From the sequence record PX880099.1: a stretch of DNA of 64,000 nucleotides. One strand, written 5' to 3'. The notes under the pieces are model-generated. The model searched no databases, had not been told where the DNA came from, and saw only the letters and a program-made list of their open reading frames with translations. Below, in pieces: positions 7,596 through 23,684 of the stretch. The number at the start of each line of letters is the position of its first letter. Within the stretch, counting starts at the first letter, position 1. The stretch is from a phage. The position numbers and the translations under genes were made by a program.

Positions 7596-7806
7596 TGATA
7601 CGCTCCACAGTTACTTTAACAATATCGTCCATATTAATCTCATCTCCCAAGACTTCAATAACACCTTCCTCATAAAGTCGAGCACATTCTTCCCATACTT
7701 CTGCTTCCGTCATTCCACCTTCAATCTTATTTGCAAGACCTTTAATAACATCTTCATTTTGTTCATCAATAAGAATTGAAACATTAAAGCTCACTAGTTT
7801 ACGCAT
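7588..7806 (-). CDS. hypothetical small acidic protein
   Basis: 72 aa; SD GGAGAA before ATG; overlaps upstream gene by 8 nt. Confidence 0.5.
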   Translation of the reverse strand: MRKLVSFNVSILIDEQNEDVIKGLANKIEGGMTEAEVWEECARLYEEGVIEVLGDEINMDDIVKVTVERIND

Positions 7807-7816
7807 TGTTTTCTCC

Positions 7817-7984
7817 TTATACCTCTAAACGGAAAGTTTCTTTAGATACAAAATCGTATCCACCTTTTTCAAGCCAGCCATTGTAAACCTCATCGGCTTG
7901 AGACTCTATCATAAAATACCGAGTGGTAACTTCGTCTCCGACAATACGCACAATTTTATAGCAAATCATGATACCATTTCCCAT
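7817..7984 (-). CDS. hypothetical small protein (55 aa, below ORF-track cutoff)
   Basis: ATG overlaps stop of upstream gene (TAATG); fills an otherwise empty gap in a tightly packed operon. Confidence 0.35.
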   Translation of the reverse strand: MGNGIMICYKIVRIVGDEVTTRYFMIESQADEVYNGWLEKGGYDFVSKETFRLEV

Positions 7985-8175
7985 TAATCTTCCTCCAGAT
8001 CAATTTCATTATAACAATGTATGCAGAAACCATCATTGTGCATATGTTGTTCATAAGACATATCTTTACCACAAGACCAACAACGGATATCCCCATCGTC
8101 CCATTCACGTTCTTCTTCACCTTCAAATTCATCTGGTAGGTAAGGCATACCAAGACAATCTAAATCGTAATGCAT
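7984..8175 (-). CDS. small Cys-rich (zinc-ribbon-like) protein
   Basis: 63 aa with CWSCG and CIHC pairs; SD AGGAGG before ATG. Confidence 0.5.
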   Translation of the reverse strand: MHYDLDCLGMPYLPDEFEGEEEREWDDGDIRCWSCGKDMSYEQHMHNDGFCIHCYNEIDLEED

Positions 8176-8188
8176 ATCTCCTCCTATA

Positions 8189-8206
8189 AAGGGGCAGAAG
8201 CCCCTT
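8189..8206 (-). other. intercistronic stem-loop AAGGGGC-agaa-GCCCCTT
   Basis: Perfect hairpin between polymerase stop and next gene's SD; no T-run, so attenuator or processing site rather than full terminator. Confidence 0.4.
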
Positions 8207-8223
8207 ATAAAACAATGAGTTAA

Positions 8224-10815
8224 CTAGTGACAGGACGCCCAGGAGTTACCCACATCATATCCGGCAGTAAGCTGAACGTTAAGATTGTAAAATTCTCCAG
8301 CCTTAGTAACAGCTAAAGCAGCAAGTTCACCTGCCCGACTATAGGCTGTAAACCATCCACCTTTGGGAGATTCATGAATGTTAGCCCAAATTTGCCCTGT
8401 CTCTTTTTCCTTATTATGCTTCCATTCTTCGACTTTAGCAAGGCATTCTTTATCAATTTTCTTTTGTTCTTCAGGATCGTCTACTTTTTTCCAACCTAAT
8501 GATTCGGGTGAAAACCATTTAAATTCTACAAGGTTACGAGAAACTTCAAGCTGGGCTTCATCGTGATATGCAATCATTTGTTGTACGAAGTCTTTATTCT
8601 TCCAGTCATCTTTAAAGAAGTCAACACTTAGTCCTTCTTCTTCGATCATATCATCATAAATAACCATTGCACGTTTAGCACAGATAACCCCACCGCTTTG
8701 GAACAGAGAGTTAAGAATCGCATGAGCAGAACGAGTAGGAACCTTACGACCGTCAATACCCAAAACATATTGTTTACCAGTCTTAACCCAGAAATCGTTT
8801 AAACGTTCTTTAAGACGCGCCAATGGGAATGCAGCTTCCCAGAAAGCATCGAACACCAATTGACCTGTAAACTTATCGCTACCAATTGTTTTAGCAACCT
8901 TGTCGGCTTGTGCACCATAGGTAATACCATACTTAACAGATTTAGCAGGACTACGTTCAAATTTACGTCCAATAGTTTCAGTGATACGTTTTGCCATCAT
9001 TGTGTGAACATCATTAGGTTTCTCTAACAACAGAGCGTTACAATATTCGTGTGGCTCCGGCTCGTATCGCCAACAGTAGTGTGATTCAATTTTTGCTTCC
9101 AAAGAGTCGAAGTCGTAGCCAATCTGGAAGTATTTAGGAACCTCTACACCAAACAAGTTACGCATCTCCCATCCAAACAAAGATGTGACACGAGGAATAT
9201 TAGCTACAGACCTATGCTTCATACGAGAGGTTGCAGCATCACATGTAGCGGCTGGTGTAGGAATACGCCCATCCGCCCTTACTGCGGCTAAGAAACCTTT
9301 ATCATATTCTTGGTCTTCTTCATCTTCTTCCCAATCAGCACCACCACCTAAAATAGAGTTCCTACGATGCTTATACGTTAAGTATTCTACAATCTGTGTA
9401 GCATAAGGGAATTTCTCACCCAAAGCTTGCAGGTTAGGACAGATTTCTTTTTCCTGACCTTTGGTAAAACATGGGTTAGTCAATACTTTAAGACCGCGAC
9501 CTTTTGCTATACGCTCTTGAATCTTCCTTTCCAAGGTTTCCGGTGTGCACTCCAGATGATCACAACGGTCCTGACAAAAATTAGAAGATAAAGTTTGCTC
9601 AACGTAAGCTCGAATACCTTTCTGAAGTTCTTCCTCGCTCTTTTTAATCTTGGTGCCAGATTTAAGAGTCAAATCTTTATCTTTATATTCCGATGGTACC
9701 CAACCTAATCCTACAAGCCAGTTTTTAATATGGGTTGTATCGTTTAATGTTGCAGGGATGTGAGGATCACATAAAGGCTCATCTGCTGCAACTGGCAGTT
9801 TCCACTCTTTCCCCAACATAACTAACCACCAATCTCCATCCCTCTCTTCCAAATGACCATCATGTTTCTTAGCAAAATTGATCATATGGTTAGTTGGTTC
9901 TAAGTTCTTTTTAATTTGCAACTTAGGTGGAATAAAAGCTTTAAGATAACCTTTTGTTGCTGGTTTAGGTGGCAAAATAGGCTCAACGAGTAAACGAAGA
10001 CGCTCCATTTCTGCATCCAAAAAAGCAAGGTTCTCTTCTGCTTGCTTCATGTTAAAAGCAAACCCACGGTGTTCCTGGCGCGTGATAATGTCTGCTACAC
10101 GTTGTTCAAGTTCAAATGGACCTTCCCATTTATCATAATCACCCCATTCTTCCATGAGGTAATTATATACACTTGTGTTGGCTTTGTTATCATAGATACA
10201 GTAATAAAGCATATCCGCAGCAAAAGTCTTAAATCGATCTTCTTCTGGAATCTCTTTACGGAAATCTATTTTTACATCACCGCCTGCTTTTCGAGAAAGT
10301 GCTGCCAAGCTATGTCCTGATTTGCCCTCAATCTTTCGATCTGGGTTTAACACTTTACTCAAAATCAAAGAGTCAATAAGTTTTACCTTATTTTTGCCCC
10401 ACGTGTTATATTTAACACTGTAATCTAATCCATAAAACAGTTTTGTAGCCAACCAGTCATAGTTGATACCGTTGTGTGCCACAGCCATTTCAACCAAATA
10501 TTCAGGCTTGTCTTTAAAATAACCTTCATGATTAATAAAGTCTGGGAAATCTTTTAATTGAAAATGTGTGTAATCTTGCGCCACATATTCTTTAAGAACA
10601 TACGTGTATTTACCATCTGATTCTTCATAAGGACGCCCGTCAAAAATATACTTAGGGCCATCGTGGAAAGCTACTATCTCTCCTGTTTCATGGTTCTCTA
10701 AGACAATACAGTGCATTTGAAATGTGTCTTTGAGACGATAAGGGCTAGCTAAATAATCGATAGTGTCATTATTCAACAATCCGTTTGCTTCAATATCCCA
10801 TGTAAACTTACTCAC
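8224..10815 (-). CDS. DNA polymerase, family A (PolI/T7-like) with 3'-5' exonuclease domain
   Basis: 863 aa; N-terminal WDIEANGL exo-like motif; GYDFDSLEAKI (motif A-like); KSVKYGITYG (motif B); YHDE (motif C). Confidence 0.9.
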   Translation of the reverse strand: MSKFTWDIEANGLLNNDTIDYLASPYRLKDTFQMHCIVLENHETGEIVAFHDGPKYIFDGRPYEESDGKYTYVLKEYVAQDYTHFQLKDFPDFINHEGYFKDKPEYLVEMAVAHNGINYDWLATKLFYGLDYSVKYNTWGKNKVKLIDSLILSKVLNPDRKIEGKSGHSLAALSRKAGGDVKIDFRKEIPEEDRFKTFAADMLYYCIYDNKANTSVYNYLMEEWGDYDKWEGPFELEQRVADIITRQEHRGFAFNMKQAEENLAFLDAEMERLRLLVEPILPPKPATKGYLKAFIPPKLQIKKNLEPTNHMINFAKKHDGHLEERDGDWWLVMLGKEWKLPVAADEPLCDPHIPATLNDTTHIKNWLVGLGWVPSEYKDKDLTLKSGTKIKKSEEELQKGIRAYVEQTLSSNFCQDRCDHLECTPETLERKIQERIAKGRGLKVLTNPCFTKGQEKEICPNLQALGEKFPYATQIVEYLTYKHRRNSILGGGADWEEDEEDQEYDKGFLAAVRADGRIPTPAATCDAATSRMKHRSVANIPRVTSLFGWEMRNLFGVEVPKYFQIGYDFDSLEAKIESHYCWRYEPEPHEYCNALLLEKPNDVHTMMAKRITETIGRKFERSPAKSVKYGITYGAQADKVAKTIGSDKFTGQLVFDAFWEAAFPLARLKERLNDFWVKTGKQYVLGIDGRKVPTRSAHAILNSLFQSGGVICAKRAMVIYDDMIEEEGLSVDFFKDDWKNKDFVQQMIAYHDEAQLEVSRNLVEFKWFSPESLGWKKVDDPEEQKKIDKECLAKVEEWKHNKEKETGQIWANIHESPKGGWFTAYSRAGELAALAVTKAGEFYNLNVQLTAGYDVGNSWASCH

Positions 10816-11609
10816 TATTCCTCCTTTCTAATGTTCTCCAGAACCCACTGAAGTTCTTTTAAACTTAAACTTCTTACTCCCGCAGTTTTACTAGCTTCGG
10901 CTTTAAGTAACGGGTAAGCCTCAATGATACGCGTTTTAAGATCAGAAGTCAAGGCTTTTAAAAAATAGGTAGATGCTTCAGATAAAGAATCTTCTTCTGA
11001 TAACACTTTACCTGCACTTGCTCCCGCTCTCCTAACAGCTATGTCGTAGTCTTTACTGTTGCCTAATACGAATAGTCGATTTTCTCCTAAAACAACGGGA
11101 GAACGCTTCTCGTTGCGTTTAATCCATACCTGGAATACACAAGGAACATCCCAAGGTTCTCCATGAAGAATAAAAGATCCTTTTGGACATTCTTCTTCGT
11201 AAAGAAGATGCATGTGGGGATTTAGTTTGTGTGCAAAAAAGATTTTTTGAAATGTGCGAGGCAAGATAAAACAAATACCACCTTCGTTATCCAACATTTC
11301 AGCACAATGGTTAAAGAATTTAATGGCAAGACTAGCATTTTTTCCAAACGGAGGATTACCGACAAAAGCAGTTACACTGCCAACAGACTCAACAGATTGA
11401 GCTAAAAAATCTGCCTCAATACAATCTTCAAACTTAGGGTCAATATCAAAAGAAGTTATGTTTTTAAAACAAGAAGAGAAAGCTCCTTCTCCCGCAGATG
11501 GTTCTACGTAGTTAGCTTCCTCTCCAAAAATTTCTTTGATCTTATCACATAAGAACCCCGCATAAGCGGGGTTAGTGTAATATTGATCAAGTGTATTCAA
11601 CTTGCTCAA
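10815..11609 (-). CDS. N6-adenine DNA methyltransferase
   Basis: SAM-binding-like VEPSAGEGAF followed by catalytic NPPF; stop overlaps polymerase start by 1 nt. Confidence 0.7.
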   Translation of the reverse strand: MSKLNTLDQYYTNPAYAGFLCDKIKEIFGEEANYVEPSAGEGAFSSCFKNITSFDIDPKFEDCIEADFLAQSVESVGSVTAFVGNPPFGKNASLAIKFFNHCAEMLDNEGGICFILPRTFQKIFFAHKLNPHMHLLYEEECPKGSFILHGEPWDVPCVFQVWIKRNEKRSPVVLGENRLFVLGNSKDYDIAVRRAGASAGKVLSEEDSLSEASTYFLKALTSDLKTRIIEAYPLLKAEASKTAGVRSLSLKELQWVLENIRKEE

Positions 11610-11618
11610 TAGTCCTCC

Positions 11619-12050
11619 TTAGTTGTTAGCGAACTCAATAGTGAGGTCAACTTTACCATCGTCAGAAATAACCATGTTTTTGGTATTTTTAAAGATGATA
11701 TCTACTTTACCTTCACTTACACGACAGAATGCAACACCATCTGCAACTTTATCAATATAATATTTGTAAGAAAGAATACCCACTTTACTACGACCAGCAC
11801 CTTTTGTGAAAGAAGGGCTTACATCGAAACGGAAACCTTTAGAAGAAACAACACGGTAAGAACGTCCAGTTGGGATATGCTCAATAACAGAGACATTGTT
11901 CTCAACAACTTTTACAGCAAACTCTTCAGGATGATCCTCAACAATCATGTGTGGGATGGCAAATGCCAACGCTTGTTTGTGTTTAATAACACCAGCACCC
12001 AGAGCACCAGCAGCTTTAACTTTTGCATTCAGATCGATTGTCATACGCAT
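11619..12050 (-). CDS. hypothetical protein
   Basis: 143 aa ORF in replication operon; no family recognised. Confidence 0.5.
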   Translation of the reverse strand: MRMTIDLNAKVKAAGALGAGVIKHKQALAFAIPHMIVEDHPEEFAVKVVENNVSVIEHIPTGRSYRVVSSKGFRFDVSPSFTKGAGRSKVGILSYKYYIDKVADGVAFCRVSEGKVDIIFKNTKNMVISDDGKVDLTIEFANN

Positions 12051-12111
12051 TTTTACTTCTCCTCTTGTTTGGTTGATGAGACAAGTATAAGTCCCTTCCG
12101 CAAAGTTGTCA

Positions 12112-12146
12112 ACAGGTATTTTTAATAAAAGGGCCGAAGCCCTTAG
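12112..12146 (-). terminator. rho-independent terminator
   Basis: AAGGGC-cgaa-GCCCTT hairpin overlapping the helicase stop, followed on - strand by TTTTATTAAAAA. Confidence 0.55.
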
Positions 12147-13921
12147 TAGTTGCTATCCGTAGGTAAGTTAGCAGGGTTGTTAAAATACTGCTCTTTGTCG
12201 TGAAGAGTTGCAGTTCTAATGTCATAGTAAAACTGCCCTGCTGGACCAGTCTCCGAGAACTCACGGTTTTTTAGGATAAAGCAATGAGTTGTATTACGTT
12301 CTACAGGATCTTCAGCAGCCTTATCTCGTTCCAAAGCCAAGGTAATACCAGCACCTTTAGCCAAGAAACTACTACCCATTGCATCGTCCTCTGTTAAGTG
12401 CTCATTGCCACCGTTAGCTGACTTCTTAACGTGTGAGATGACGATAATAGTTATAGCATACTCTTTCATGATTCGCTTCAACCATGTTGCTAACTCTTCC
12501 TGGGCTTGAACATCCATACCAGAAAGCAAATCAGAATAAGGGTCGATAACAAGAATTGTTACTCCAAAATAGATGATCATCTCCAAAACTTTTTCTTTGA
12601 TAGACTCCACATCTGCTCCACGATCATCACACACGTAAAAACGTGGTGATCCATCTTCTCTTTCGTAAAAATCTAGGATTTTTTCTTTATTCTCTTCCAA
12701 GATTTGAAATTTCTCTTCCGGTGTTTTCCTGTGTAGAGGAATGTGTAGGAAAGAGGATAACAGGTTACGAGAATACTTTTTATAAGTCGCTTCCAAGGAC
12801 AGAATACCTAGGGTATGTTCTGGGTGTGCAACAATAATATGTTTGGTGATCTCGTTCACCATCAAAGTTTTACCGATACTGGTCTTTGCCAGGATGACTG
12901 TAATCTCTTCCTCTACTAAACCACCACCCAACATGTTTGCAGCAACACGCATAAAAGGAGGCAAGGTAATCATCTTGGATTCCAAGCATTCCAATGCAGC
13001 TTCATACAAGACATTAGAAGCATAAACACCTGCGGGAGTGTATAGACGAGCACTCCAAAAAGCTTTTACGAAATCCTTTGCACGACCTTCTTCCAGATAC
13101 TGATTGGCATCCTTAAGATCCATCTGCATACGGTAGACTTTGTTACGAGGTAACACCTTAACAATATTTTCAAATGCCTCATTACCTGCTTTGTCGTTAT
13201 CCATGCAAACAATAATCTTCTTAAATTTTTCAAAGAAAGGATATTGTGCCTGAACTTGTTTATACATACTGGTTTCACCAGTTGTGCCACTTACTACGGC
13301 TGGAAGCTCATATTTACTGTCCAAGTTTTCAGATAGCATTTGATAAGCTGCCAGAGCATCGTGTTCACCACCTGTAATTACAACAGTATGAGAACGATCT
13401 GCAAAACGAATTTGTCCAAAAAGATCTACATCTTTACCTACTTGACCAATAGGTTTACTGAAATCTTTAGGATGAATACGACGCTTAAAACCGACCAATT
13501 CTTTACCGATGGTAGTTGGATATAAACAACTTTCTACTACCATCTGATCCCCTTCCTGACGGTATTCATAACGAACACCATAGAAAGATGAAACTTTTTC
13601 TTTAATGCCTCGATAACCACGTGGGTTGGTTGATGTTTCTTGAACAATTTTACGATGAATCTGTTTATTAAATTCCGAACCCACAATCTCCTCCTCTTCT
13701 TCTAAAACTTCACCATTTTCTCGTAACCATTCTACGCTAGGAATAGTGTATTCACACGCAAAGCACTTAGCACCTTTATGCTCTCCATTAGAATCTAATC
13801 CGTAAACCATCAGGTTATTACGAGAGCGATCCTTGCCATTTTTCATGCAGCGCGGACAACCTGTATGTCCTTCCTTGCTAAGATCAACATCAAATCCATA
13901 TTTAGTTATAATGTGCGACAC
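12143..13921 (-). CDS. bifunctional primase-helicase (T7 gp4-like: zinc finger, TOPRIM, DnaB-type helicase)
   Basis: N-terminal CPRC..CFAC zinc-binding motif; C-terminal Walker A AKTSIGKT and Walker B-like VLVIDPYSD. Confidence 0.85.
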   Translation of the reverse strand: MSHIITKYGFDVDLSKEGHTGCPRCMKNGKDRSRNNLMVYGLDSNGEHKGAKCFACEYTIPSVEWLRENGEVLEEEEEIVGSEFNKQIHRKIVQETSTNPRGYRGIKEKVSSFYGVRYEYRQEGDQMVVESCLYPTTIGKELVGFKRRIHPKDFSKPIGQVGKDVDLFGQIRFADRSHTVVITGGEHDALAAYQMLSENLDSKYELPAVVSGTTGETSMYKQVQAQYPFFEKFKKIIVCMDNDKAGNEAFENIVKVLPRNKVYRMQMDLKDANQYLEEGRAKDFVKAFWSARLYTPAGVYASNVLYEAALECLESKMITLPPFMRVAANMLGGGLVEEEITVILAKTSIGKTLMVNEITKHIIVAHPEHTLGILSLEATYKKYSRNLLSSFLHIPLHRKTPEEKFQILEENKEKILDFYEREDGSPRFYVCDDRGADVESIKEKVLEMIIYFGVTILVIDPYSDLLSGMDVQAQEELATWLKRIMKEYAITIIVISHVKKSANGGNEHLTEDDAMGSSFLAKGAGITLALERDKAAEDPVERNTTHCFILKNREFSETGPAGQFYYDIRTATLHDKEQYFNNPANLPTDSNY

Positions 13922-13933
13922 TTTGTTCTCCTG

Positions 13934-14212
13934 TTAAAATGGTTCGTTAGTCTCCATCATATATTCTGCTTCTAGTTCTTCCATGTGCTTTCTAAATTGG
14001 AAAGCAATTTCTGCTACAGTTACATTTAAATCTTTTTCAAAAACTTCTGTAGATCCTTCATAAAAACGAATACCGTCAATTAAAAGCCCTCCGTGGTAAT
14101 CCCAATCGCTTTCACGAGAAAGTGGATTAGGTTCTTCATAATAGTAATCCACCTCCACGACCAAGGCTTTCCCGTTACGAGTGGTGTATTCAAAATCAAA
14201 AGTGTTAATCAT
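13934..14212 (-). CDS. hypothetical protein
   Basis: 92 aa; ATGA-type overlap with downstream gene. Confidence 0.5.
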   Translation of the reverse strand: MINTFDFEYTTRNGKALVVEVDYYYEEPNPLSRESDWDYHGGLLIDGIRFYEGSTEVFEKDLNVTVAEIAFQFRKHMEELEAEYMMETNEPF

Positions 14213-15156
14213 TATAGCTCCTCAAATAAAAGTCTACGACGCTCATTCAACACATCAATGTGATAATGAGTCCTGACATACTTAGCTAATGCTAATCCTT
14301 TCTCCATGCAAACATCGGGAGCACTTAATAAGTATTCCGTAATATCTTTCCACTCGGAAGGTGTTTCAGCAAAGAATAACAAATCTTTAAACTCTTGTGT
14401 ATGATAATTCTCACGAGGAGAGCAGATTAAAGGTAAACCCTTAGCACCCGCCTCAAGAATTTTAAGATTGCTTTTTGCATTATTAAACACGTTATCGATC
14501 AATGGTGCAAGACTGATTTGATGACCATCGTAAGATTCCATGTAGTTGGCATATGGTCTTACACCTTCATAAACACAAGTTGGTGCTACATTTTCTCTGA
14601 TTAAAGACCATTCACGACTACTTAAAACTTCAGAATCCCTACGAAAACCACATATTGTAAGATCTTTACCAAAATCGGGCAAGATAGCCAAATCTTGTTT
14701 ATGTGTTTCACTTCCAGCCCAGACTAATGGAGTTTTGGAGTAGCGATCACGGGTCAACACAAATTGACCTTCATCGTAAGGAAGTCCATTAGGGATTATG
14801 TGCACATTATCATTGTATTGTGAAAGTTCAACTTGCAAGGCAGGTGTCGTAGTTGTAACAAGATCACTGTGCTCTAAAAACCATTTTAAATGTTCACGAA
14901 TACCTGATTCAAAAATACCTTCTAACATGTGTCCTTTTGGAATAACTAAAGAGTCATCCAAATCCATAACCATTTTAAAGCCTAGGTTTTTAAGGGCTAA
15001 AAAGCCCTCTTTACCTTTTGTTGGCACTCCGTTAAAAACGAAAACGTTGTGTTTAGGTTGTGAAGAGAACTGCCTTGAGTAAGGCAGCACTACCCTATGG
15101 AAATCGCAGACACTATAATTGATTCCGTTACGATTGTCAAGAATTATTTGTCCCAT
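14212..15156 (-). CDS. putative glycosyltransferase, GT-B (family 1-like), paralog A
   Basis: C-terminal ILEAGAKGLPLICS..LLFFAETPSEW resembles GT1 C-terminal domain; paralogous to 15164-16111. Confidence 0.5.
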   Translation of the reverse strand: MGQIILDNRNGINYSVCDFHRVVLPYSRQFSSQPKHNVFVFNGVPTKGKEGFLALKNLGFKMVMDLDDSLVIPKGHMLEGIFESGIREHLKWFLEHSDLVTTTTPALQVELSQYNDNVHIIPNGLPYDEGQFVLTRDRYSKTPLVWAGSETHKQDLAILPDFGKDLTICGFRRDSEVLSSREWSLIRENVAPTCVYEGVRPYANYMESYDGHQISLAPLIDNVFNNAKSNLKILEAGAKGLPLICSPRENYHTQEFKDLLFFAETPSEWKDITEYLLSAPDVCMEKGLALAKYVRTHYHIDVLNERRRLLFEEL

Positions 15157-15163
15157 ACTTCAC

Positions 15164-16111
15164 CTACAAACTTTCAATAACCTGGCGTCGCAATTCGTTT
15201 GCATCTGCCAGATTATAATGTGTTCGAACATGTTCCGCTAAGAACAAGCCGCGATCTTCCCGATAGTTCGGATTACGAAGAAGCTTAACAATTTCGTAAT
15301 GCCATTCTGCTTTATTCTCTGCGTAAGCAACAGCGCGAGCATCTACAGGGTTAAAATAAGGTAATACCTTAGAACAAACAATCGGAATACCTTTTGCCCC
15401 AGCTTCAAGGATTTTGAGATTACTTTTACAATTATTAAAATCATTATCTACCAAAGGAGCTATAGCAATAGCATGACTTTCGTAAACACTCATGTAGTTA
15501 TCTAAATCTTTTACAGCAGCTTTATATTTGGCATTTGGTAAATTTCTACGGATCTTAATCCACTCTTGCCCTGTGATACTCTGCGAAGCTTCATACCCCG
15601 CAATAGTAAGAAGTTCATCATCAAAAGTATTAGAGACTAGTCGTAAATCGGGTTCGTGACTAGCACCGCCAGCCCATACAACAGGGGCACCGGATGAACG
15701 ATCATTTGACAAAGTGAATTGTCCGCTATCAAAAGGAAGTGCATTTCGGATCACAACAACATTCCTATTTAAGTGACGGATCTTATATGCCAAATATTCC
15801 GTAGTCACAATGACCACATCGGCAAGCTTAACCATAGCTACAATAGCATGAGTGTTTGACTCATATAAACTTGCTAAATAATGTTCTGGATTAAGTTGGT
15901 AGAAATCATCTAAATCTACAACAATCTTAACACCTTGACGTTTCAGGGACAGAACATATTCTGCCCCTTTAGAATGAATACGGTTAAACACGACAACATC
16001 TTTCTTAGGCTGAAAATTATTGTTGTTAAATGGTATAACAATACGATGATAATCACAACCACTGTGAGGTTTTGCATCAATTTTCAGTTTAGTCCATTTT
16101 TTATTTGACAT
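15164..16111 (-). CDS. putative glycosyltransferase, GT-B (family 1-like), paralog B
   Basis: Start moved to ATG with SD GAGGAGG (MSNKKW); C-terminus ILEAGAKGIPIVCS..VAYAENKAEW parallels neighbour. Confidence 0.5.
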   Translation of the reverse strand: MSNKKWTKLKIDAKPHSGCDYHRIVIPFNNNNFQPKKDVVVFNRIHSKGAEYVLSLKRQGVKIVVDLDDFYQLNPEHYLASLYESNTHAIVAMVKLADVVIVTTEYLAYKIRHLNRNVVVIRNALPFDSGQFTLSNDRSSGAPVVWAGGASHEPDLRLVSNTFDDELLTIAGYEASQSITGQEWIKIRRNLPNAKYKAAVKDLDNYMSVYESHAIAIAPLVDNDFNNCKSNLKILEAGAKGIPIVCSKVLPYFNPVDARAVAYAENKAEWHYEIVKLLRNPNYREDRGLFLAEHVRTHYNLADANELRRQVIESL

Positions 16112-16784
16112 GTGCCAGTGCCTCCTCATAAGAAATTCGGATTTTCCCATTTTTAATATCTTCTAAAGACGCTTTATATTCTTCCCAGTTAATGCCAATA
16201 GCAGCTTCTTTCTCTTCTTTTGTCAGATTAGCAAAAGGCATAGGATTATTTCCAAAAACATCGTCTGGGTGGATATAAGCCATGATACGAAGTGGACAAG
16301 GTATTGCCTGAATACCCTGATTCAAACCAGCAGCTTTCAAACGGTGTACCCATTCAGCATCTTCAAAACCATAGCCGTGAGTGTAAGGGCGGAAATAACC
16401 CATCTTCTCAACAACGGCACGAGAATACATTGCAAATTGACACATTGCAAGTTCCCAGAGAATAACTTCTCCTTTACTCCCAACAACTTTATCTTTGAAA
16501 TACTCCGGCATACCAAAGAAATCCCATCCTCCAGAGACAGCTTGATCTACAAAATATGTTTCCCATCCCTCCATGATTGGGTAGCAATCGTCGTCAAAAA
16601 TAAACCAATAATCATAACCTTCTTCATAAAACTGGTGCATAAGTTCATTCCTGGCATAAGCTACACCTTTACGATCTGGATCGTTGAATACTCGAAAATC
16701 TGCGTGTGGATCTGTTACAAGGTAGTCTTTAAGTGGACGGACACCTACAGTGATAACACCCACTCCGATTTTAATATTTTCCAT
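16101..16784 (-). CDS. putative glycosyltransferase, GT-A-like (DxD motif)
   Basis: FIFDDDCYP acidic motif after a hydrophobic strand. Confidence 0.45.
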   Translation of the reverse strand: MENIKIGVGVITVGVRPLKDYLVTDPHADFRVFNDPDRKGVAYARNELMHQFYEEGYDYWFIFDDDCYPIMEGWETYFVDQAVSGGWDFFGMPEYFKDKVVGSKGEVILWELAMCQFAMYSRAVVEKMGYFRPYTHGYGFEDAEWVHRLKAAGLNQGIQAIPCPLRIMAYIHPDDVFGNNPMPFANLTKEEKEAAIGINWEEYKASLEDIKNGKIRISYEEALAHVK

Positions 16785-16792
16785 TTTCTCTC

Positions 16793-17356
16793 CTAAATAG
16801 TTTTACTGTGATCGTGACAGTGTAATAAATGATGTATAGACCGTTGAGGATTTGTTTGACCTAATCTGTAAATGTGAAACAGATACATTCCCCGCATCAA
16901 TCCTAACCTCTTTCCTTTTTCATGTAAAGTGCGAGAGAAAATTAAGTCGAATTGGATAGATTTTTCTTCGAAAGGAATTTCATTCCACAATGATTTTCTA
17001 AAAAGCAAAAAGAAACCTGCTAGAGGTGTTCCGAAAGGAACTTCTTCAACACTCACTTTATGATAGTCTCTTGCAACCTTAGCATATTCTATATGGTTTA
17101 GAATATCTGGATCATCGTTAATTTGGTTAGAGAAAAGCTGATAACCACTACCTAACCTGTTACAAGTTGCACCTATTACATCAAAAGGTGGGTTTGACAT
17201 AACAAGCTCTTCAAGCATAGATGGTTGATCAGGCAGGAGGAACATCGTATCGGTATCTCTTAAACACACCCAACTATCATCTGGAAGAACGGCAATAGCT
17301 TCATTGATAGCCTTGCCGATATTTCCTGTCAGATAGGGAGTAATATAATAAATCAT
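16793..17356 (-). CDS. putative glycosyltransferase-like protein
   Basis: VCLRDTDTMF DxD-like motif; adjacent to three other glycosyltransferase candidates. Confidence 0.4.
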   Translation of the reverse strand: MIYYITPYLTGNIGKAINEAIAVLPDDSWVCLRDTDTMFLLPDQPSMLEELVMSNPPFDVIGATCNRLGSGYQLFSNQINDDPDILNHIEYAKVARDYHKVSVEEVPFGTPLAGFFLLFRKSLWNEIPFEEKSIQFDLIFSRTLHEKGKRLGLMRGMYLFHIYRLGQTNPQRSIHHLLHCHDHSKTI

Positions 17357-17372
17357 TCTCCCCTCCGTTATA

Positions 17373-17564
17373 TTAACTGTCAGCTACAATCCCACGTTTA
17401 ATCATTTCTTGTTGGATTTGGATGACACGATCTCGTGCTTCCATATATTCTTTAAAAGATTCTTGGAGATGGTCACGAGCTACATCCCGTAGTTTAATCA
17501 GTTTGTCGTTTGTCACTTCTTGAAGAGAGATCTCGCCAGTTTCATTGGTCCCAAGCGTTTTCAT
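17373..17564 (-). CDS. hypothetical small protein
   Basis: 63 aa, charged, coiled-coil-like. Confidence 0.45.
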   Translation of the reverse strand: MKTLGTNETGEISLQEVTNDKLIKLRDVARDHLQESFKEYMEARDRVIQIQQEMIKRGIVADS

Positions 17565-17772
17565 TTACAACCTCCTTAATAGCTACTGCACAGTTCTTAC
17601 AAATACATTGACCTTTGTTCTTAGAAATTTCAATGTAAGGTTCATTTTCGTTTTCTCCGCGTCGTGAATCGTATATTACAGTATTGAAGCAGACAACGCA
17701 AATGTTTTTAATAACGACATATTTTTGCACTTTTTGTTTAGTGCGAAAATTGACTTCAATAACTTCTCCCAT
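17542..17772 (-). CDS. small zinc-ribbon-like protein
   Basis: Start set at ATG after SD GGGGAG (TGATG overlap); CVVC and CICKNC pairs. Confidence 0.45.
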   Translation of the reverse strand: MGEVIEVNFRTKQKVQKYVVIKNICVVCFNTVIYDSRRGENENEPYIEISKNKGQCICKNCAVAIKEVVNENAWDQ

Positions 17773-18056
17773 CAGTGAATCTCCCCTAAAATGTTGTTTT
17801 GAGACATTACTGCGGAGCATTCTACAGCATCATGAGTCCTTGCAAAACGCTCCCACAACACAGCATCTACTTTAAGAACCATACAAGGATAAATACTGTC
17901 GTTGATCATATCAATACTGTATTTATCTACATCCTTTTCATCTTCCATAAACAAAGTAGCGTATGCTTCCAAATGCTTACGGGTGTAGTATACGTCCTCT
18001 TCGGTAAGACCGACAACCAGGTAACTTGCTACAACAACAGTATTATCTTCTTGCAT
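17772..18056 (-). CDS. hypothetical protein
   Basis: Start set at ATG after SD GGGGAG (MQEDNTVV). Confidence 0.45.
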   Translation of the reverse strand: MQEDNTVVVASYLVVGLTEEDVYYTRKHLEAYATLFMEDEKDVDKYSIDMINDSIYPCMVLKVDAVLWERFARTHDAVECSAVMSQNNILGEIH

Positions 18057-18057
18057 T

Positions 18058-18579
18058 TTAACTCCCCTTTGGTAGATAGAAACCATGCACTTTATCTCGA
18101 TAAACAAGACGCATATCACGCTCCCAGTGTGTCTTTATATTCCGCTTCTTGAAGTATAGAGCACCTTTAGTAACATCTAAAACAGACCGCAATTCAGGAA
18201 AATGTTTCTCTAAATAAAGTAAACGCTCCGCTATTGCTTTTGCTTCCTGCCACTTATCTTTCTCTGTTACGTTAAAAGTTTTCGCATATGAGAATTGCCC
18301 TTTCTGGAACAAGACTCCTCTGACTGTGTTAGGAAAGTAGGCATCATTTCTTCTATTGATTACCACATTCCCAACGGCATTCATTCCTTTTTTACCCAGA
18401 CCGCGACCTTCTGCGTAAATTGCACAAGCTAATAGAATTTTATCATTATATTGCTTTGTACATTTGTGAACTACTTTAGCGGTTTTTACGTTTGCAGCTT
18501 CGGCTTTCGCCACAACAGGTGTAAATGTAAAAGCAGTTAAGGATAGTAACGCAACTGTTACAAAGTTTTTTATCAGCAA
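18058..18579 (-). CDS. secreted cell-wall hydrolase, SleB/CwlJ family (endolysin candidate)
   Basis: TTG start after SD AGGAGG; N-terminal signal peptide; AIYAEGRG..VINR core resembles the SleB hydrolase family. Confidence 0.65.
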   Translation of the reverse strand: MLIKNFVTVALLSLTAFTFTPVVAKAEAANVKTAKVVHKCTKQYNDKILLACAIYAEGRGLGKKGMNAVGNVVINRRNDAYFPNTVRGVLFQKGQFSYAKTFNVTEKDKWQEAKAIAERLLYLEKHFPELRSVLDVTKGALYFKKRNIKTHWERDMRLVYRDKVHGFYLPKGS

Positions 18580-18611
18580 ATTTTGCCTCCTTTTTAAGTT
18601 AACGAACTTCT

Positions 18612-18640
18612 AGTATAACACGATAGAGGCTTTATTGCAA
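18612..18640 (-). promoter_or_regulatory. sigma70-like promoter for the hydrolase operon
   Basis: On - strand TTGCAA-17 bp-TATACT about 30 nt upstream of the SD. Confidence 0.4.
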
Positions 18641-18660
18641 GAGGGGGATTTCTCCCCCTC
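18641..18660 (-). terminator. stem-loop GAGGGGGA-gaaa-TCCCCCTC after the TerD gene
   Basis: Perfect G/C hairpin 19 nt past the TerD-family stop; weak U tail; resembles the hairpin at 801-828. Confidence 0.4.
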
Positions 18661-18678
18661 AAAATCATTTGTTAATTA

Positions 18679-19281
18679 TTATGGACATTCATACCATTCT
18701 TTTTTACCACCGAAGGCCATCACCACATCGCAAATATCCAGACCAGCTTTACCTACACCATATGCTTTCAGTTTCCATTCCCCATCTTCACGAACCAAGG
18801 AAGCCACGTGGCAGATTGTGTTGCCAGCTACTTCAGGAGCCAGGAAGTCAAAATCCAGAATTTCCACATTGCGCTCGGAGTCGAAGATTTTAAGCATACC
18901 TTCAGAAGCATGACCAAAACGTTTCAGACCTGTATCATCATCAATGGTCAGAACAAAGGCAATCTCTTGTGCATCAGGAGAGATTTTAGCCAGAGTAATA
19001 TCAATCTGCTCCATGCTGCCAGTTCCATCACGAACATCGTCACCAGCGAAGGTAGAACGTTCAGGATCAAACTTGTTAGCATAGCAAACTAGATGACGTG
19101 CAGACAGCATTTCAGGATTGCCAGCGGCATTGTGACGACAAACCAGTGCACTTACATCCAGATCCAGTTTAGAATCAGATTTCCAAGAGAATTCCAGGCG
19201 CAGTTCTTTCAGAGCCGGAGCAACTTTCTTCAGGGAAATTTTTTCGCTAGAGCCTTTTTTCAGAGAAATTTTATCAGTCAT
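18679..19281 (-). CDS. TerD-family protein (tellurite-resistance/stress TerD domain)
   Basis: N-terminal KISLKK, LDLDVSALV and GDD..DG motifs typical of TerD; SD GGAGA before ATG. Confidence 0.75.
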   Translation of the reverse strand: MTDKISLKKGSSEKISLKKVAPALKELRLEFSWKSDSKLDLDVSALVCRHNAAGNPEMLSARHLVCYANKFDPERSTFAGDDVRDGTGSMEQIDITLAKISPDAQEIAFVLTIDDDTGLKRFGHASEGMLKIFDSERNVEILDFDFLAPEVAGNTICHVASLVREDGEWKLKAYGVGKAGLDICDVVMAFGGKKEWYECP

Positions 19282-19296
19282 CTTTTGTCTCCTCTA

Positions 19297-19566
19297 TTAT
19301 TTAAGTGTAATACCAGTTACAGTCAATTCTACTTCCAAAAGCTTAGATGTGTTTTGGATTGCTACTAATTGTGCATGATGGTTTAGTTCTACAGCAGAAT
19401 AATCATTTTCCCCATCATCTACTTTTAAATAAACAATAACTTCACTAAGGTCTAAACCATTTTCGTCAAATGCATTTTCATAGACGAAAGTATCTCCTAC
19501 ATCCAAATCTTTAATGGTAAGGCATCGTTTATTTACTTTTTGCTCATCAATTTCGAAGTTTAACAC
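19297..19566 (-). CDS. hypothetical protein, paralog of 20588-20866
   Basis: Shares GDTF..Y..A.DE.GLD and C-terminal E.EL.VT.ITLK with the paralog. Confidence 0.5.
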   Translation of the reverse strand: MLNFEIDEQKVNKRCLTIKDLDVGDTFVYENAFDENGLDLSEVIVYLKVDDGENDYSAVELNHHAQLVAIQNTSKLLEVELTVTGITLK

Positions 19567-19795
19567 TTCTTCCTCCTAATGTTATCTCCGGTTTGTATAT
19601 ACGAAGAATTATAGCATTTTCATTTTCTTTGTCAACCCATTCTTCATAATCGGGCCATACATGAATCTCTACTCTACTTACAATATCTTCCATCCGCACA
19701 GTCCCAATGAAATATTCTTTGAGACTGCGCATAATGAAAGCTTCTCTCTCGCGCCAATAATTTTCTACGACTTGAGAGGCAAGCTCGTCGATCAT
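19547..19795 (-). CDS. hypothetical protein
   Basis: 82 aa ORF in co-oriented block. Confidence 0.45.
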   Translation of the reverse strand: MIDELASQVVENYWREREAFIMRSLKEYFIGTVRMEDIVSRVEIHVWPDYEEWVDKENENAIILRIYKPEITLGGRSVKLRN

Positions 19796-20586
19796 TTTTT
19801 AGCACCTACCTTAACAACCCACTCTCCGAACTCTTCAGATAAGAGTTTGTCATAAAGCTCTGAATCTGTCAAGTCTAAATCTTTAATGCCAATAAAACCA
19901 ACATTGTCATAAGCATTTGCCAGTTCTTTCAGGAAGCTGAACTTCTCATTACCAACGCCAACCATGAACCAATAGATAGGCTTATTCTTATTCTCTTCAA
20001 TAAGACGACGAACAGCACTAGGATCACCATTCTCACCATCTGTCTGGAAGAATACAACACCAGGAGTAACGTCAGCACCTGGTTCAGATACAGCTACAAC
20101 TTTTTCACGCTCTACCGATACTGTTTCAGTTTTACCCAGCAGACGATTAAAGAAGCCTTTCTTTGGAGCCTCCTCTTGTACCACTTGTTTAGTGGTAACA
20201 TATTTGGTAACAGTGCCAAAATACTCATCGTAGATATCTGCCATTACAGGGGCGTAATTTGTTCCACCTCCGATACGAACATTACGCATACATTTACCAA
20301 CATAGTCATCGTAAACGTCTGCTGTTGCTGGAGTAAGCTCTTGAGAACTCGTATTGAAGGCCCACATGTCAATTTGTTCATTATCGTCGAACAGCATACC
20401 AAAAGGAAGCAGTTTGCCTACAAAATCACTCACTACCCCACGAGTATATAGACCATGCATACTACCAGAAATATCTAGAGCACATGCTACACGAAGAACA
20501 ATCTTACCTTCATTCAGGTTCTTATTCTTTTTCAGAGAGAAAGCAAGGTTTTCTTGACGTTTTTTCAGGCTGATTTTCTCGGACAT
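19792..20586 (-). CDS. TerD-like N-terminus plus vWA-domain protein (TerY/TerF-like)
   Basis: N-terminal KISLKK as in TerD; ALDISGSM fits a vWA MIDAS DxSxS motif. Confidence 0.55.
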   Translation of the reverse strand: MSEKISLKKRQENLAFSLKKNKNLNEGKIVLRVACALDISGSMHGLYTRGVVSDFVGKLLPFGMLFDDNEQIDMWAFNTSSQELTPATADVYDDYVGKCMRNVRIGGGTNYAPVMADIYDEYFGTVTKYVTTKQVVQEEAPKKGFFNRLLGKTETVSVEREKVVAVSEPGADVTPGVVFFQTDGENGDPSAVRRLIEENKNKPIYWFMVGVGNEKFSFLKELANAYDNVGFIGIKDLDLTDSELYDKLLSEEFGEWVVKVGAKK

Positions 20587-20587
20587 A

Positions 20588-20866
20588 TTATTTCTCCTTC
20601 TTAAGTGTAATATTGGTAACTTCTAAATCTACTTCCACCATATTTGTATCTGGTGGGATGCAATGAGTATAGCCTCGTTGTGCTAGTGATCCATTAATAC
20701 AGATCGCACTGTTTGTGGAATTTTTAATGAACACCAAGTTACGGTAGGTATCCAACCCTGCGTCTTCATAGGCATCATAATACATGAATGTGTCCCCTAT
20801 GCCAAGGTCTTCGAAAGCAATAGGTAAATCCTGACACTTTTCTTCTTGAATATTGAATCTAAACAC
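20588..20866 (-). CDS. hypothetical protein, paralog of 19297-19566
   Basis: Start set at GTG after SD GAGGAGG, giving MFRFNIQEEK parallel to MLNFEIDEQK of the paralog. Confidence 0.45.
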   Translation of the reverse strand: MFRFNIQEEKCQDLPIAFEDLGIGDTFMYYDAYEDAGLDTYRNLVFIKNSTNSAICINGSLAQRGYTHCIPPDTNMVEVDLEVTNITLKKEK

Positions 20867-21422
20867 GCATACCTCCTCTACCAATTTTGAAGCCCAAATC
20901 GTAAGCTTCCTTAGTGATCTTTTGTAACTCACTTATAGGAAGTGTTACAAGAGGATCATCTTCTTCAATTTCCATCTTGTCATCTTCTGTTTCAATGAGA
21001 GTATTATGCACTTTGTGATAAGGGTTGTCAACACGTTTAAACTTATTCTTTTCTGTGCTGAAAAAACAATCTGGATCTTCTTCACCATCACCCCAACCTT
21101 GGTTAGGATCTCCGTCAGATTGTTCTGTAGGGATTTCACCTGTAAAATACTCTTCCAGCACCATAGCGATACCGTCCCTTGGATTCGAGGAATGCATTAA
21201 ATCACAAACCTTACCCCAATCCATAGCCCATTCGAACCGTTCACGAACGCCATTTTCATTCTCCTTTCCAGAGAAAACACAACCATAACTATCATAGTTG
21301 CCATACATCTCTTCAATAACAACACCATCCTTCAAAAGAAAGAGATAGCAAGGTGATCCGTCGAAAGAAGTAGAAAGGGCAGCTTTGCCCGATTCCTTAC
21401 ACAAAAAGCTAAAACAACCCAT
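20859..21422 (-). CDS. hypothetical acidic protein
   Basis: 187 aa ORF; no family recognised. Confidence 0.5.
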   Translation of the reverse strand: MGCFSFLCKESGKAALSTSFDGSPCYLFLLKDGVVIEEMYGNYDSYGCVFSGKENENGVRERFEWAMDWGKVCDLMHSSNPRDGIAMVLEEYFTGEIPTEQSDGDPNQGWGDGEEDPDCFFSTEKNKFKRVDNPYHKVHNTLIETEDDKMEIEEDDPLVTLPISELQKITKEAYDLGFKIGRGGMRV

Positions 21423-21619
21423 TACAAACCCTCCTTCAGATTATCAAGAGCTACAGTGGTTTCACAAAATTCTCCATATGCTTTATGATGTTCTAGAAAA
21501 GCTTCAGGTCCACCCCAATCATTATCGTGTGTATTCCAACCATCAATAAAAGCATCTTCAATGATTGTGATCAGTTCCTGTCGAGTCAACGTAATGGTAT
21601 CAGGTTTTGGATTATGCAT
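21422..21619 (-). CDS. hypothetical small protein
   Basis: 65 aa; SD GAGGAG before ATG. Confidence 0.5.
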   Translation of the reverse strand: MHNPKPDTITLTRQELITIIEDAFIDGWNTHDNDWGGPEAFLEHHKAYGEFCETTVALDNLKEGL

Positions 21620-21785
21620 CTTCTTTCTCCTCTAAAATATGAAACCCATAGCTACAATAGTCCTGAAAGGTTTCGTGTGCAAGATCTTCTATATCCTCTT
21701 GAGACATATCATCTTCAATTTCGATATCCACAACCTCATTGCATCCACACCAAGCAGTTTCAATATTCACTCGTAAAGTTTTCAT
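21612..21785 (-). CDS. hypothetical small acidic protein (57 aa, below ORF-track cutoff)
   Basis: SD GAGGAAG before ATG; 8-nt overlaps with both neighbours; contains CGC..C. Confidence 0.35.
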   Translation of the reverse strand: MKTLRVNIETAWCGCNEVVDIEIEDDMSQEDIEDLAHETFQDYCSYGFHILEEKEDA

Positions 21786-21988
21786 TCTTCTTCCTCATTA
21801 AATTCCACATCAGAAATAACTTTAAATCTACCAAAGTTACGACAACCTTCATAGATATATCCATCACGACAAGCTGCAAAAATATCTGGAGTTTGTAGCT
21901 GGGTCATTGGGGCAAAGCGTTTCTCTTCGTCATAACGAACACCTATTTCTCCAGCTTGTTCGTCAAGCATGTATACACGGATTCTCAT
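21782..21988 (-). CDS. hypothetical small protein
   Basis: 68 aa; ATGA-type overlaps with neighbours. Confidence 0.45.
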   Translation of the reverse strand: MRIRVYMLDEQAGEIGVRYDEEKRFAPMTQLQTPDIFAACRDGYIYEGCRNFGRFKVISDVEFNEEEE

Positions 21989-23097
21989 TTACCCAACCCC
22001 TTCTTAACAGCGTCAACCATCCCATCTTCGAGAGATTGAACTTCATTGATGTAATCAACACGGGCAGCACGGGCTTCCGTATTGATGCGGTTAGTTTCTT
22101 CCAACATTTTAACCAAGTTTTCCTGATCGTGACGCAGAGTTTCAATATCCAACACTTGACGGTTAGCCAGTGCTGCTGCTTCGATCTGATTCTGTGTGGC
22201 AAGATCGCTACCCAGTTTAATTGCCAGGTTAAATTCATCAAGAACGTTATTCTGTGTCTCTGCGGCTTTCATTTGACGTAAGCTTTCAATATACATTGAG
22301 AAGTTAGCAGAGTAAGCAGGAATAACATTATTTACTATGTTACGCGCAGATCGCATTAAGCTTGCAGAAACTTTTTGCATACCTTGCACACGTGGTCCCA
22401 TTTGGACACACAGTAGGCGCAATGCTTTTAAATCCGCAATACGAATCTCCAGAAGATCCAAGGTATCTCGGATCGCTTGTCGCTGTTCTACCGCATCTTC
22501 TGGAAGAGCAGCCAAAGCTTGTTCTTCTTTTTCATAGGTCGCTGTTAGAAGCTGCATATCTCGGTTCAAACTTGCAGCATATTGTCCAATAGCTTGATGT
22601 AGCTTTTCAAGGTATACCAAAGAATCTTCTTCTTTGCGAATATCCATTTGAAGGTTCTTTACCAACTCTTCAATACGGTTATTAACATTATCAAACTCCC
22701 CAAACAGATCTTCTTTCATACCCATAACTTTTTTAATGAGTTTAGTAATACCTTTGCTTTGTTTAATAGAGTTTGGATCAAGTTGTTTTGCCTGTTTAAT
22801 CAAAGCTGTGAGTCGTTCACTCATCTGATCGCCTTGATTACTACGTTGATGTTTTAATACCTCGGCATTCAAGGAACGCAAGGTTGTTCCTGCCTCTGCC
22901 CCGATCTCTTCGATCTCTTGTCGTGTCATAGAAGGCAAAACTGGGACTTCTTGCGGTGCGGCTGGTGCATAAACAGGACTGGCATCTAACACGCTTGGAG
23001 CAAATACAGATTTACTTGCATCTGTTGTTGCAGTGAATACACTCATTTCAGACTTCTTCTGACCACCAGTAGCTGCTTTTAAAAACGGACTTGTCAT
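21985..23097 (-). CDS. TelA-like toxic-anion-resistance protein
   Basis: 370 aa, long predicted coiled-coil, overall resemblance to TelA/KlaA; sits between TerD-like and TerC genes. Confidence 0.65.
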   Translation of the reverse strand: MTSPFLKAATGGQKKSEMSVFTATTDASKSVFAPSVLDASPVYAPAAPQEVPVLPSMTRQEIEEIGAEAGTTLRSLNAEVLKHQRSNQGDQMSERLTALIKQAKQLDPNSIKQSKGITKLIKKVMGMKEDLFGEFDNVNNRIEELVKNLQMDIRKEEDSLVYLEKLHQAIGQYAASLNRDMQLLTATYEKEEQALAALPEDAVEQRQAIRDTLDLLEIRIADLKALRLLCVQMGPRVQGMQKVSASLMRSARNIVNNVIPAYSANFSMYIESLRQMKAAETQNNVLDEFNLAIKLGSDLATQNQIEAAALANRQVLDIETLRHDQENLVKMLEETNRINTEARAARVDYINEVQSLEDGMVDAVKKGLGK

Positions 23098-23684
23098 TCT
23101 TCATTCTCCTCTTCTGCATCTCTTATGTATGGTGAAACACCGTATTCTTTAGCTACTTTAACCCAATCGTCCCATTTATACAACCATAATTTTCCTTCTG
23201 TTCCTTCTTTATCTGATTTTAACCACATATTAGGTTGCTTACCTGGATACATGCGATTAGGTTTACGATTATAACCTCTAATACATCTTGTCGCAAACCT
23301 ATCTACCAGAACAAGAACATATTTATATTCGTGGTTCAACGGCTCTTTGGAAGTAGCTTTAGGGTTTGCCCCTAATTCTGCTGCCAGTTTTTGCCAATGA
23401 GCACCGTGCCGACTAAACTTACCCATACAACCATCAATAGCATGAGCAATTTCGTGCTTCATTGTATCCACGATCATATCTCTTGTAGAGTTCTTATGCA
23501 AGTGCCAATTTACAACAACAATTTTATCTCGGTAGTTGCACCAACCGAAAGAGTTATTCACTTTGTTTCTAACGCAAGCTTTATATCCTGCTTCACGTAA
23601 CATGTTGTAGTAAACAGGAAAATCTTCTTTTATTTCCTGCATCACTTCCCACCACAAGAGTTGCAAGTCTCTCTCGGTATACAT
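23094..23684 (-). CDS. SprT-like zinc metallopeptidase domain protein
   Basis: HEIAHAID (HExxH) with downstream His/Cys-containing segment. Confidence 0.5.
   Translation of the reverse strand: MYTERDLQLLWWEVMQEIKEDFPVYYNMLREAGYKACVRNKVNNSFGWCNYRDKIVVVNWHLHKNSTRDMIVDTMKHEIAHAIDGCMGKFSRHGAHWQKLAAELGANPKATSKEPLNHEYKYVLVLVDRFATRCIRGYNRKPNRMYPGKQPNMWLKSDKEGTEGKLWLYKWDDWVKVAKEYGVSPYIRDAEEENEE

Follow-up and report, generated by a model that had tools for sequence, protein, structure and literature searches.

What do four consecutive glycosyltransferase genes in the replication region of a coliphage glycosylate? The genes lie within a 64,000-nucleotide stretch of sequence record PX880099.1, the whole of which is referred to here as the window, and which derives from a Phapecoctavirus, a phAPEC8-like myovirus of E. 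coli in the Stephanstirmvirinae. Four co-directional open reading frames (ORFs) occupy 14212-17356. The original prediction of four putative glycosyltransferases in a row is supported by these minus-strand ORFs, by PHROG profiles, by a structural model of one product and by the RefSeq names; their identity as glycosyltransferases was already known, because RefSeq annotates all four as 'glycosyltransferase'. We find that GT187, GT227 and a GT-B gene form a mobile cassette common to unrelated small phages and prophages. Because the homologs sit in head-morphogenesis modules, and because the phage has its own rmlBACD operon, the leading reading is glycosylation of virion proteins with a rhamnose-containing glycan of three to four sugars, to which we assign a probability a little below even. 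The genes are as follows, in order of transcription.

16793..17356, minus strand: GT187, 187 aa, a small GT-A protein with a DxD motif (D34, D36); heads the row, and GGAGG precedes the start codon ATG
16101..16784, minus strand: GT227, 227 aa, GT-A-like, with the motifs DDD64-66 and YGxED138-142
15164..16111, minus strand: GT-B2, 315 aa, a GT4-like GT-B protein; the first 11 nt of the gene overlap the end of GT227
14212..15156, minus strand: GT-B1, 314 aa, the second and more diverged GT-B paralog

The cassette in other phages and prophages

A Serratia HK97-like prophage (L004; L numbers denote the loci compared) has genes of 180, 209 and 306 aa in the same order, with 41%, 37% and 39% identity to GT187, GT227 and GT-B respectively; this triad, which includes the closest bacterial-genome homolog of GT-B1, is flanked by the lysis cassette on one side and by terminase genes on the other. 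In a Paraburkholderia prophage (L008) the triad is situated between head-completion and tail genes, and it is also present in Devosia (L009) and in the IMG/VR contigs L028, L029, L035-37 and L054, the genes occurring in either order at different loci. An RmlB-like dehydratase is encoded inside the L028 cassette, and the glycosyltransferase genes of L032 are flanked by a protease-capsid fusion gene and a portal gene. Lambdoid and P22/Sf6-like phages carry GT227 and GT-B pairs, those of the lambdoid phages being 37-45% identical to the window proteins. In Bacteroidota phages (L006 19317-20540, L010 9347-10534) a single protein of ~400 aa combines a TOD1/MUCI70-like glycosyltransferase domain with a GT187 domain that follows it, and in Cellulophaga phage phi17:1 and a Chitinophaga prophage the gene for this fusion is positioned between portal/MuF and protease/capsid. 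The phi17:1 fusion gene is preceded by a Methyltransf_24 gene annotated as 'DNA methyltransferase', and an unannotated 152-aa gene separates GT-B from GT227 in a P22/Sf6-like contig (L094 10927-11385).

Head genes were mapped with iterative hidden Markov models built from Pfam-verified seeds in 29 loci of at least 9 kb from outside the Stephanstirmvirinae, comprising representatives at <70% GT187 identity and five loci examined individually. A head-morphogenesis gene (portal, MuF, protease, major capsid protein or TerL) is present within 4 kb of GT187 in 23 of the 29 loci and within 1 kb in 14. GT187 directly follows the major capsid gene in eight loci, lies between portal/MuF and protease/major capsid genes in six (e.g. 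Cellulophaga phi17:1 and L010), and between the major capsid and portal genes in three. The binomial tails are 5e-6 (4 kb) and 6e-4 (1 kb) against assumed backgrounds of 0.375 and 0.2, for loci that are not independent of one another. When 111 proteins encoded near GT187 in 24 loci (±4.5 kb) were scanned with Pfam, 58 families were matched, and the 25 listed include capsid (10, +1), portal (8), S78 protease (5), MuF (5) and connector (4) families, together with extra glycosyltransferases, FkbM methyltransferases (4), one sugar C-methyltransferase and NDP-sugar epimerases/dehydratases; none of the 25 listed is a DNA- or nucleotide-modification family. Given its co-location with head genes in most lineages, the cassette is probably co-expressed with them. 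Its glycan would be short and possibly methylated or deoxy-sugar-containing.

Within the Stephanstirmvirinae the cassette is co-inherited with the genes for dTDP-L-rhamnose synthesis. The rmlBACD operon is outside the window, at 69571-72849 of the Escherichia phage ukendt genome (NC_052661.1), amid nrd, glutaredoxin and thyX genes, and GT187, GT-B1 and RmlC are spread over the same two genera, Phapecoctavirus and Justusliebigvirus (phi92-like). Justusliebigvirus genomes have the same four-gene row adjoining primase/helicase; some relatives have no GT227 or a single GT-B (L016-L019), which is the kind of variation expected of a diversifying glycan. That the glycosyltransferases act with the phage's own dTDP-rhamnose operon has been speculated in print. 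The original prediction could see neither rmlBACD, which is elsewhere in the genome, nor the homologs in the head-morphogenesis modules of other phages.

Glycosylation of virion proteins would proceed as follows. GT187, GT227, GT-B2 and GT-B1, acting as soluble cytoplasmic enzymes and probably in sequence, would add successive sugars and so build a short chain of at most four residues. The chain probably includes one or more L-rhamnose residues, for which the rmlBACD operon of the phage would be the source. The sugars would most likely be placed on proteins of the phage's own virion (one or several, for example capsid, decoration or fibre proteins), and the mature particle would carry a glycan coat, as in some mycobacteriophages and giant viruses. 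In the Stephanstirmvirinae the cassette would have acquired its second GT-B gene and a rhamnose source of its own. A product borne on the particle suits strictly lytic phages better than lysogenic conversion does. We infer the acceptor, the sugars and the order of action from homology and genomic context. A broader proposal, which we regard as possible but doubtful, is that the cassette constitutes a widespread and unrecognised virion-glycosylation system of phages of Gram-negative hosts (Enterobacteriaceae, Burkholderiales and Bacteroidota), typically residing in the head-morphogenesis operon; the four enzymes and dTDP-rhamnose pathway of the phAPEC8- and phi92-like phages would then place a rhamnose-containing tetrasaccharide on particle proteins, possibly flexible fibres not visible by cryo-electron microscopy, such as the collagen-repeat fibre encoded at 858-2879, and affect stability, receptor interactions or antibody recognition.

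Several points weigh against a virion acceptor. The proximity to virion morphogenesis genes applies to the homologs; the neighbours in the window are replication genes, and the Stephanstirmvirinae cassette is possibly downstream of a sigma-70-type early promoter. DNA methyltransferase genes also adjoin phage terminase genes (e.g. L032), and a head-module site alone is thus compatible with a DNA target. The neighbourhood statistics rest on an assumed background and on phylogenetically non-independent loci, and the fold matches described below are generic to GT-A and GT4 enzymes, with neither acceptor nor donor readable from them. No striking Ser/Thr-rich acceptor-like tails were found in a scan of Phapecoctavirus structural proteins, and a literature search returned no report of glycosylated phi92 or phAPEC8 virions. 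A 2026 cryo-electron microscopy study of phi92 (head at 3.9 A, baseplate at 3.2 A), in which the three sets of fibres of the phage were unresolved, mentions no glycan. The same literature search found no experimental study of these glycosyltransferases and no liquid chromatography-mass spectrometry study of phi92 or phAPEC8 DNA.

The product of the plus-strand gene at 858-2879 is a tail fibre of 674 aa that combines a Tail_spike_N domain with 102 residues of collagen G-X-Y repeats. It is conserved over its entire length in Phapecoctavirus and Justusliebigvirus, and Vequintavirus has the last 105 aa only. Genes for collagen-repeat proteins occur close to the cassette both in the window and at L006, L008 and L032/33/44/47; this, and the collagen glycosyltransferases that head the Foldseek matches of GT187 (below), suggested collagen repeats as acceptor. 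Of 45 loci in the portal lineage of L008 and L032, 21 have a collagen-like gene after the portal gene; four of the 21 (all in one sublineage) have the glycosyltransferases and 17 do not; the association between the two has a Fisher p of 0.04, for non-independent loci. A role for the collagen-repeat fibre as acceptor is speculative.

The enzymes and their possible acceptors

PHROG glycosyltransferase profiles match all four proteins with E values of 3e-79 to 2e-148. Pfam matches are weak across the row, with GT-B1 alone reaching a cutoff, and barely so; an NCBIfam scan of the four proteins gave no match, and sequence and profile searches of the three glycosyltransferase families against PDB chains gave nothing meaningful. 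No transmembrane segments were found in any of the four (maximum KD19 at most 1.65).

GT-B1 and GT-B2 are true paralogs, as was first proposed from a common C-terminal motif: they share 41% identity over 303 aa (E 1e-76) and the motif KSNLKILEAGAKG(L/I)P. The longest ORF for GT-B2 spans 15164-16150, but the gene is placed at 15164-16111 because a GAGGAGG Shine-Dalgarno sequence stands 9 nt before the ATG at 16111, with none before 16150, and because the RefSeq start is the same ATG. GT-B2 is the paralog nearer to the single-copy homologs, with 45% and 41% identity to the GT-B proteins of L095 and L094, as compared with 40% and 36% for GT-B1. Orthologs in Phapecoctavirus and Justusliebigvirus are 76% and 70% identical, as opposed to the 41% between paralogs, and since both copies have orthologs in both genera the duplication is older than the split between them.

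Both proteins match phrog_7162, GT-B2 with an E value of 2e-148 and GT-B1 with 3e-145, and both retain all of the invariant residues of the family. The Pfam Glyco_trans_1_2 score of GT-B1 is marginal (25.2 bits, cutoff 25), and GT-B2 scores 20.6 and 22.6 with models of the Glycos_transf_1 clan, below their cutoffs. An AlphaFold2 model of GT-B1 (pLDDT 93.6) predicts a GT4-like GT-B fold, in which two Rossmann-like domains are separated by a cleft. A Foldseek search with this model returned 206 PDB matches at E<=1e-3, and the 50 listed are nearly all GT-B glycosyltransferases with GT4-type enzymes at the top; PglA, MshA, BshA, GlgM, GtfC/Gtf3 and SdgB match at E ~2e-9, with TM ~0.6 and 12-15% identity. 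The E-x7-E signature of retaining GT4 enzymes is incomplete, the first Glu (E235) being present and nearly invariant and the +8 residue being Leu or Ile, in LEAGAKG(L/I)P(L/I).

The other two genes had been described as GT-A-like with DxD motifs. For GT187 this holds fully, with a single Rossmann-like domain and a DxD metal/nucleotide-sugar site; its top Foldseek matches are the collagen glycosyltransferases LH3 and COLGALT1, with further fold matches to TarP and RmlT. GT227 is a putative GT-A-like protein, its PHROG match is to a glycosyltransferase family (phrog_2456, E 3e-79), and DDD64-66 and YGxED138-142 are invariant in an alignment of 16 sequences; its Pfam matches (TAGT, Glyco_transf_7C and GT2) all fall below cutoff. 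BLASTP and hhalign of the families gave no significant relatedness between GT187 and GT227.

The GT227 matches bear on the first of the two acceptors originally proposed for these enzymes, namely phage DNA, whose hydroxymethylated bases would be rhamnosylated or otherwise glycosylated as an anti-restriction measure. Olsen et al. (2020) had already speculated that rhamnose is added to hydroxymethylated nucleotides, and the position of the Stephanstirmvirinae cassette amid primase-helicase and other replication genes, and of the rml operon amid nrd and thyX genes, is in keeping with that view. GT227 matches the TET-associated glycosyltransferase profile (TAGT, PF20691) with 19.2 bits against a gathering threshold of 27.5 (E 1.3e-3), with profile positions 54-90 of 205 aligned; its Paraburkholderia homolog does so at E 1.4e-5, and GT227 also has a weak match (E 5e-6) to phrog_842, 'beta-glucosyl-HMC-alpha-glucosyltransferase'. 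However, the GT227 matches to TAGT and phrog_842 span just the 40-60 residues preceding the DxD motif, and the former is below the Pfam cutoff. The reference-genome annotation includes only the FAD-dependent ThyX, with no ThyA-like hydroxymethylase and no TET/JBP, and Pfam scans of 10 candidate hypothetical proteins (around annotated methyltransferases and including the 'Dcm' ORF) revealed no TET/JBP or hydroxymethylase.

Published observations on the phages themselves also argue against a DNA acceptor. Phapecoctavirus ESCO5, ESCO13 and ESCO25 were typed by restriction fragment length polymorphism with HincII, which cuts their DNA, and only three Tevenvirinae resisted digestion; ESCO5 and ESCO25 are 99.2% identical to the window in the glycosyltransferase region. 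The phi92-like phages of the BASEL study, which have the orthologous four-gene row, were reported to be 'exceptionally susceptible' to restriction-modification systems 'despite a putative dTDP glycosylation machinery'. On this literature evidence the virion DNA is not refractory to most restriction enzymes in the manner of the T-even phages. Furthermore, glycosyltransferase pairs 37-45% identical to those of the window belong to lambdoid phages that replicate with lambda O/P and have no hydroxymethylase in the sequenced replication-to-portal region, and the neighbours of the cassette elsewhere are sugar methyltransferase and capsid genes rather than genes of nucleotide metabolism. DNA hypermodification is thus not borne out, and we consider it improbable.

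Remodelling of a host envelope glycan, in line with the host surface polysaccharide that was the other acceptor originally proposed, is a serious rival, albeit one that we think unlikely. The soluble enzymes would act at the inner membrane face on lipid-linked intermediates, such as undecaprenyl-pyrophosphate-linked units of enterobacterial common antigen or O-antigen, lipopolysaccharide core or colanic acid, altering the infected cell surface so as to block, for example, superinfection or the sticking of progeny to debris, and providing lysogenic conversion in temperate relatives. Enterobacterial common antigen and lipopolysaccharide core are receptors of these phages, the GT4 relatives PglA and PimA use lipid-linked acceptors, and the fold matches to TarP and RmlT point in the same direction. 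So do two genomic positions: the lambdoid GT227/GT-B pair of L095/L096 is at a classical moron site, between the Q antiterminator and holin genes and beside a HicAB toxin-antitoxin (L095 8551-9291), and the Serratia cassette lies between lysis and terminase genes. Most homologs, however, are inside head-gene blocks and not at att or immunity-proximal conversion sites, and the loci examined showed no flippase, polymerase, Gtr-type membrane protein or polyprenyl-phosphate priming transferase either within the cassette or next to it. The Stephanstirmvirinae, moreover, have no temperate phase, and the BASEL authors consider changes to abundant surface glycans probably futile in a lytic cycle.

Gene neighbourhood in the window

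Over 13900-17600 the window and Escherichia phage ukendt share 99.3% identity, and 71 records matched this region, nearly all of them Phapecoctavirus. Some matching records are named for other hosts, Campylobacter phage B15/A150, Acinetobacter phage ABPW7 and Klebsiella phage ZCKP1 (MG065650.1, OP562383.1 and MH252123.1), and are 98-99% identical to Phapecoctavirus coliphages; these host labels may be wrong, or the sequences contaminants.

The glycosyltransferase row lies, as first described, between the primase-helicase (12143-13921) and a wall hydrolase, which is SleB-like (18058-18579), and shares its strand with the genes for the N6-adenine methyltransferase and the DNA polymerase. Because of the shared strand, the tight spacing (junctions are gaps of 7-8 nt or the 11-nt overlap) and the finding of no minus-strand terminator-like sites in 7000-20000, co-transcription of the row with the replication genes as a single operon is plausible. 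A perfect sigma-70 consensus promoter (19635-19608, minus strand; TTGACA-16-TGnTATAAT, 12/12) stands upstream of the long train of minus-strand genes that includes the row. The ORF list also has the following.

13934..14212, minus strand: 92-aa ORF abutting the GT-B1 stop codon

This ORF possibly belongs to the glycosyltransferase operon. It has no match in a Pfam scan, and an ORF of comparable size is in the equivalent place in Justusliebigvirus (L005 9177-9446).

The DNA polymerase is 863 aa in the window (8224-10815) and 1189 aa in phage ukendt (L001 13347-16916), where a ~325-aa in-frame insertion that is absent from the window (intein or homing-endonuclease-like, containing 'WMADGHKR...') accounts for the difference; a truncated or defective polymerase in the window was considered and rejected. 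Two RefSeq product names are doubtful (L097 2012-2491; L003 8550-9233 (NC_052661.1)): Pfam identifies the 'DNA methyltransferase' encoded after the portal gene as an XkdF-like serine protease, and the 'DNA methyltransferase / Dcm' ORF has zero Pfam matches.

Directly upstream of the row, at 18679-28590 on the minus strand, is a complete Ter-type cluster with these components.

18679-19281, minus strand: TerD
19792-20586, minus strand: vWA-TerF-like protein
21985-23097, minus strand: TelA
23094-23684, minus strand: SprT-like protein
25310-26284, minus strand: TerC
26601-27083, minus strand: Macro domain protein
27093-27920, minus strand: ComF-like PRTase_3 protein
27913-28590, minus strand: HAD hydrolase

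We take this cluster to resemble the Ter-linked module for which Anantharaman et al. 2012 proposed the synthesis of a nucleoside-like metabolite. The arrangement, with the row immediately downstream of the TerD/vWA/TelA/TerC/Macro/PRTase/HAD genes on the same strand, raises another cytoplasmic acceptor, such as a non-structural host or phage protein, an RNA or tRNA, or a small molecule (possibly the product of the Ter/PRTase module), modified in host takeover or counter-defence. The enzymes are soluble and their folds reveal no acceptor, both of which would suit this explanation. Small phages, however, carry the cassette without any Ter genes, three to four sequential glycosyltransferases with a dedicated deoxysugar pathway are more typical of glycoconjugate assembly, and the embedding in head modules is left unexplained. 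We judge an acceptor of this kind improbable.

Relation to known glycosylation systems

Phapecoctavirus and Justusliebigvirus are among the broad-host-range coliphages that are most often isolated, and they are frequently put forward for therapy. A phage-made rhamnose glycan on their particles, if present, would have consequences for immunogenicity, clearance, stability and receptor engagement, and would mean that virion glycosylation occurs in enterobacterial phages as well as in mycobacteriophages. The present data correct a recurring assumption, that a glycosyltransferase cluster and an rml operon near replication genes signify DNA hypermodification, and define a small, portable and directly testable three-enzyme cassette.

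The T-even DNA glucosyltransferases and the TAGT enzymes are likewise phage glycosyltransferases encoded near replication genes, and GT227 weakly resembles them ahead of its DxD motif. The differences are that GT227 scores below threshold, that searches for a hydroxymethylase or a TET partner found neither, and that the DNA is restriction-sensitive; moreover, the T4 alpha- and beta-glucosyltransferases act alone on hydroxymethylcytosine, whereas here there is a cassette of three to four enzymes with a deoxysugar pathway. The retaining GT4 enzymes (PglA, MshA, BshA, PimA, Gtf3/GtfC and SdgB) share with the window GT-B proteins the overall fold of two Rossmann domains and a C-terminal nucleotide-sugar-binding motif, the counterpart of ...LEAGAxG.P, although identity is 12-15% with TM ~0.6, the window proteins are shorter (~315 aa) and without the second Glu of E-x7-E, and one paralog is barely at the Pfam cutoff (25.2 vs 25). 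Prophage systems for cell-wall and O-antigen glycosylation, such as TarP and GtrABC, contrast with the present one, which has no Gtr-type membrane components, belongs to a strictly lytic phage, and has its homologs in head modules rather than conversion loci.

Chloroviruses and Mimivirus have glycosyltransferase clusters with virus-encoded rhamnose synthesis, and A197 of the archaeal virus STIV is likewise part of a viral glycosylation machinery. Similarity to these giant- and archaeal-virus machineries is of a generic GT-A kind only (7-16% identity), and the hosts and virion types are different. In mycobacteriophages Che8, Rita and others, the major capsid protein carries covalently bound glycans (Freeman et al. 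2023, as described in PMC11256854), and these phages provide a working model of the role of a glycosyltransferase cassette in a lytic particle. The hosts there are actinobacterial and the glycosylation is experimentally demonstrated, whereas here it is predicted from genes, and the two systems are alike in using multiple, soluble, phage-encoded glycosyltransferases.

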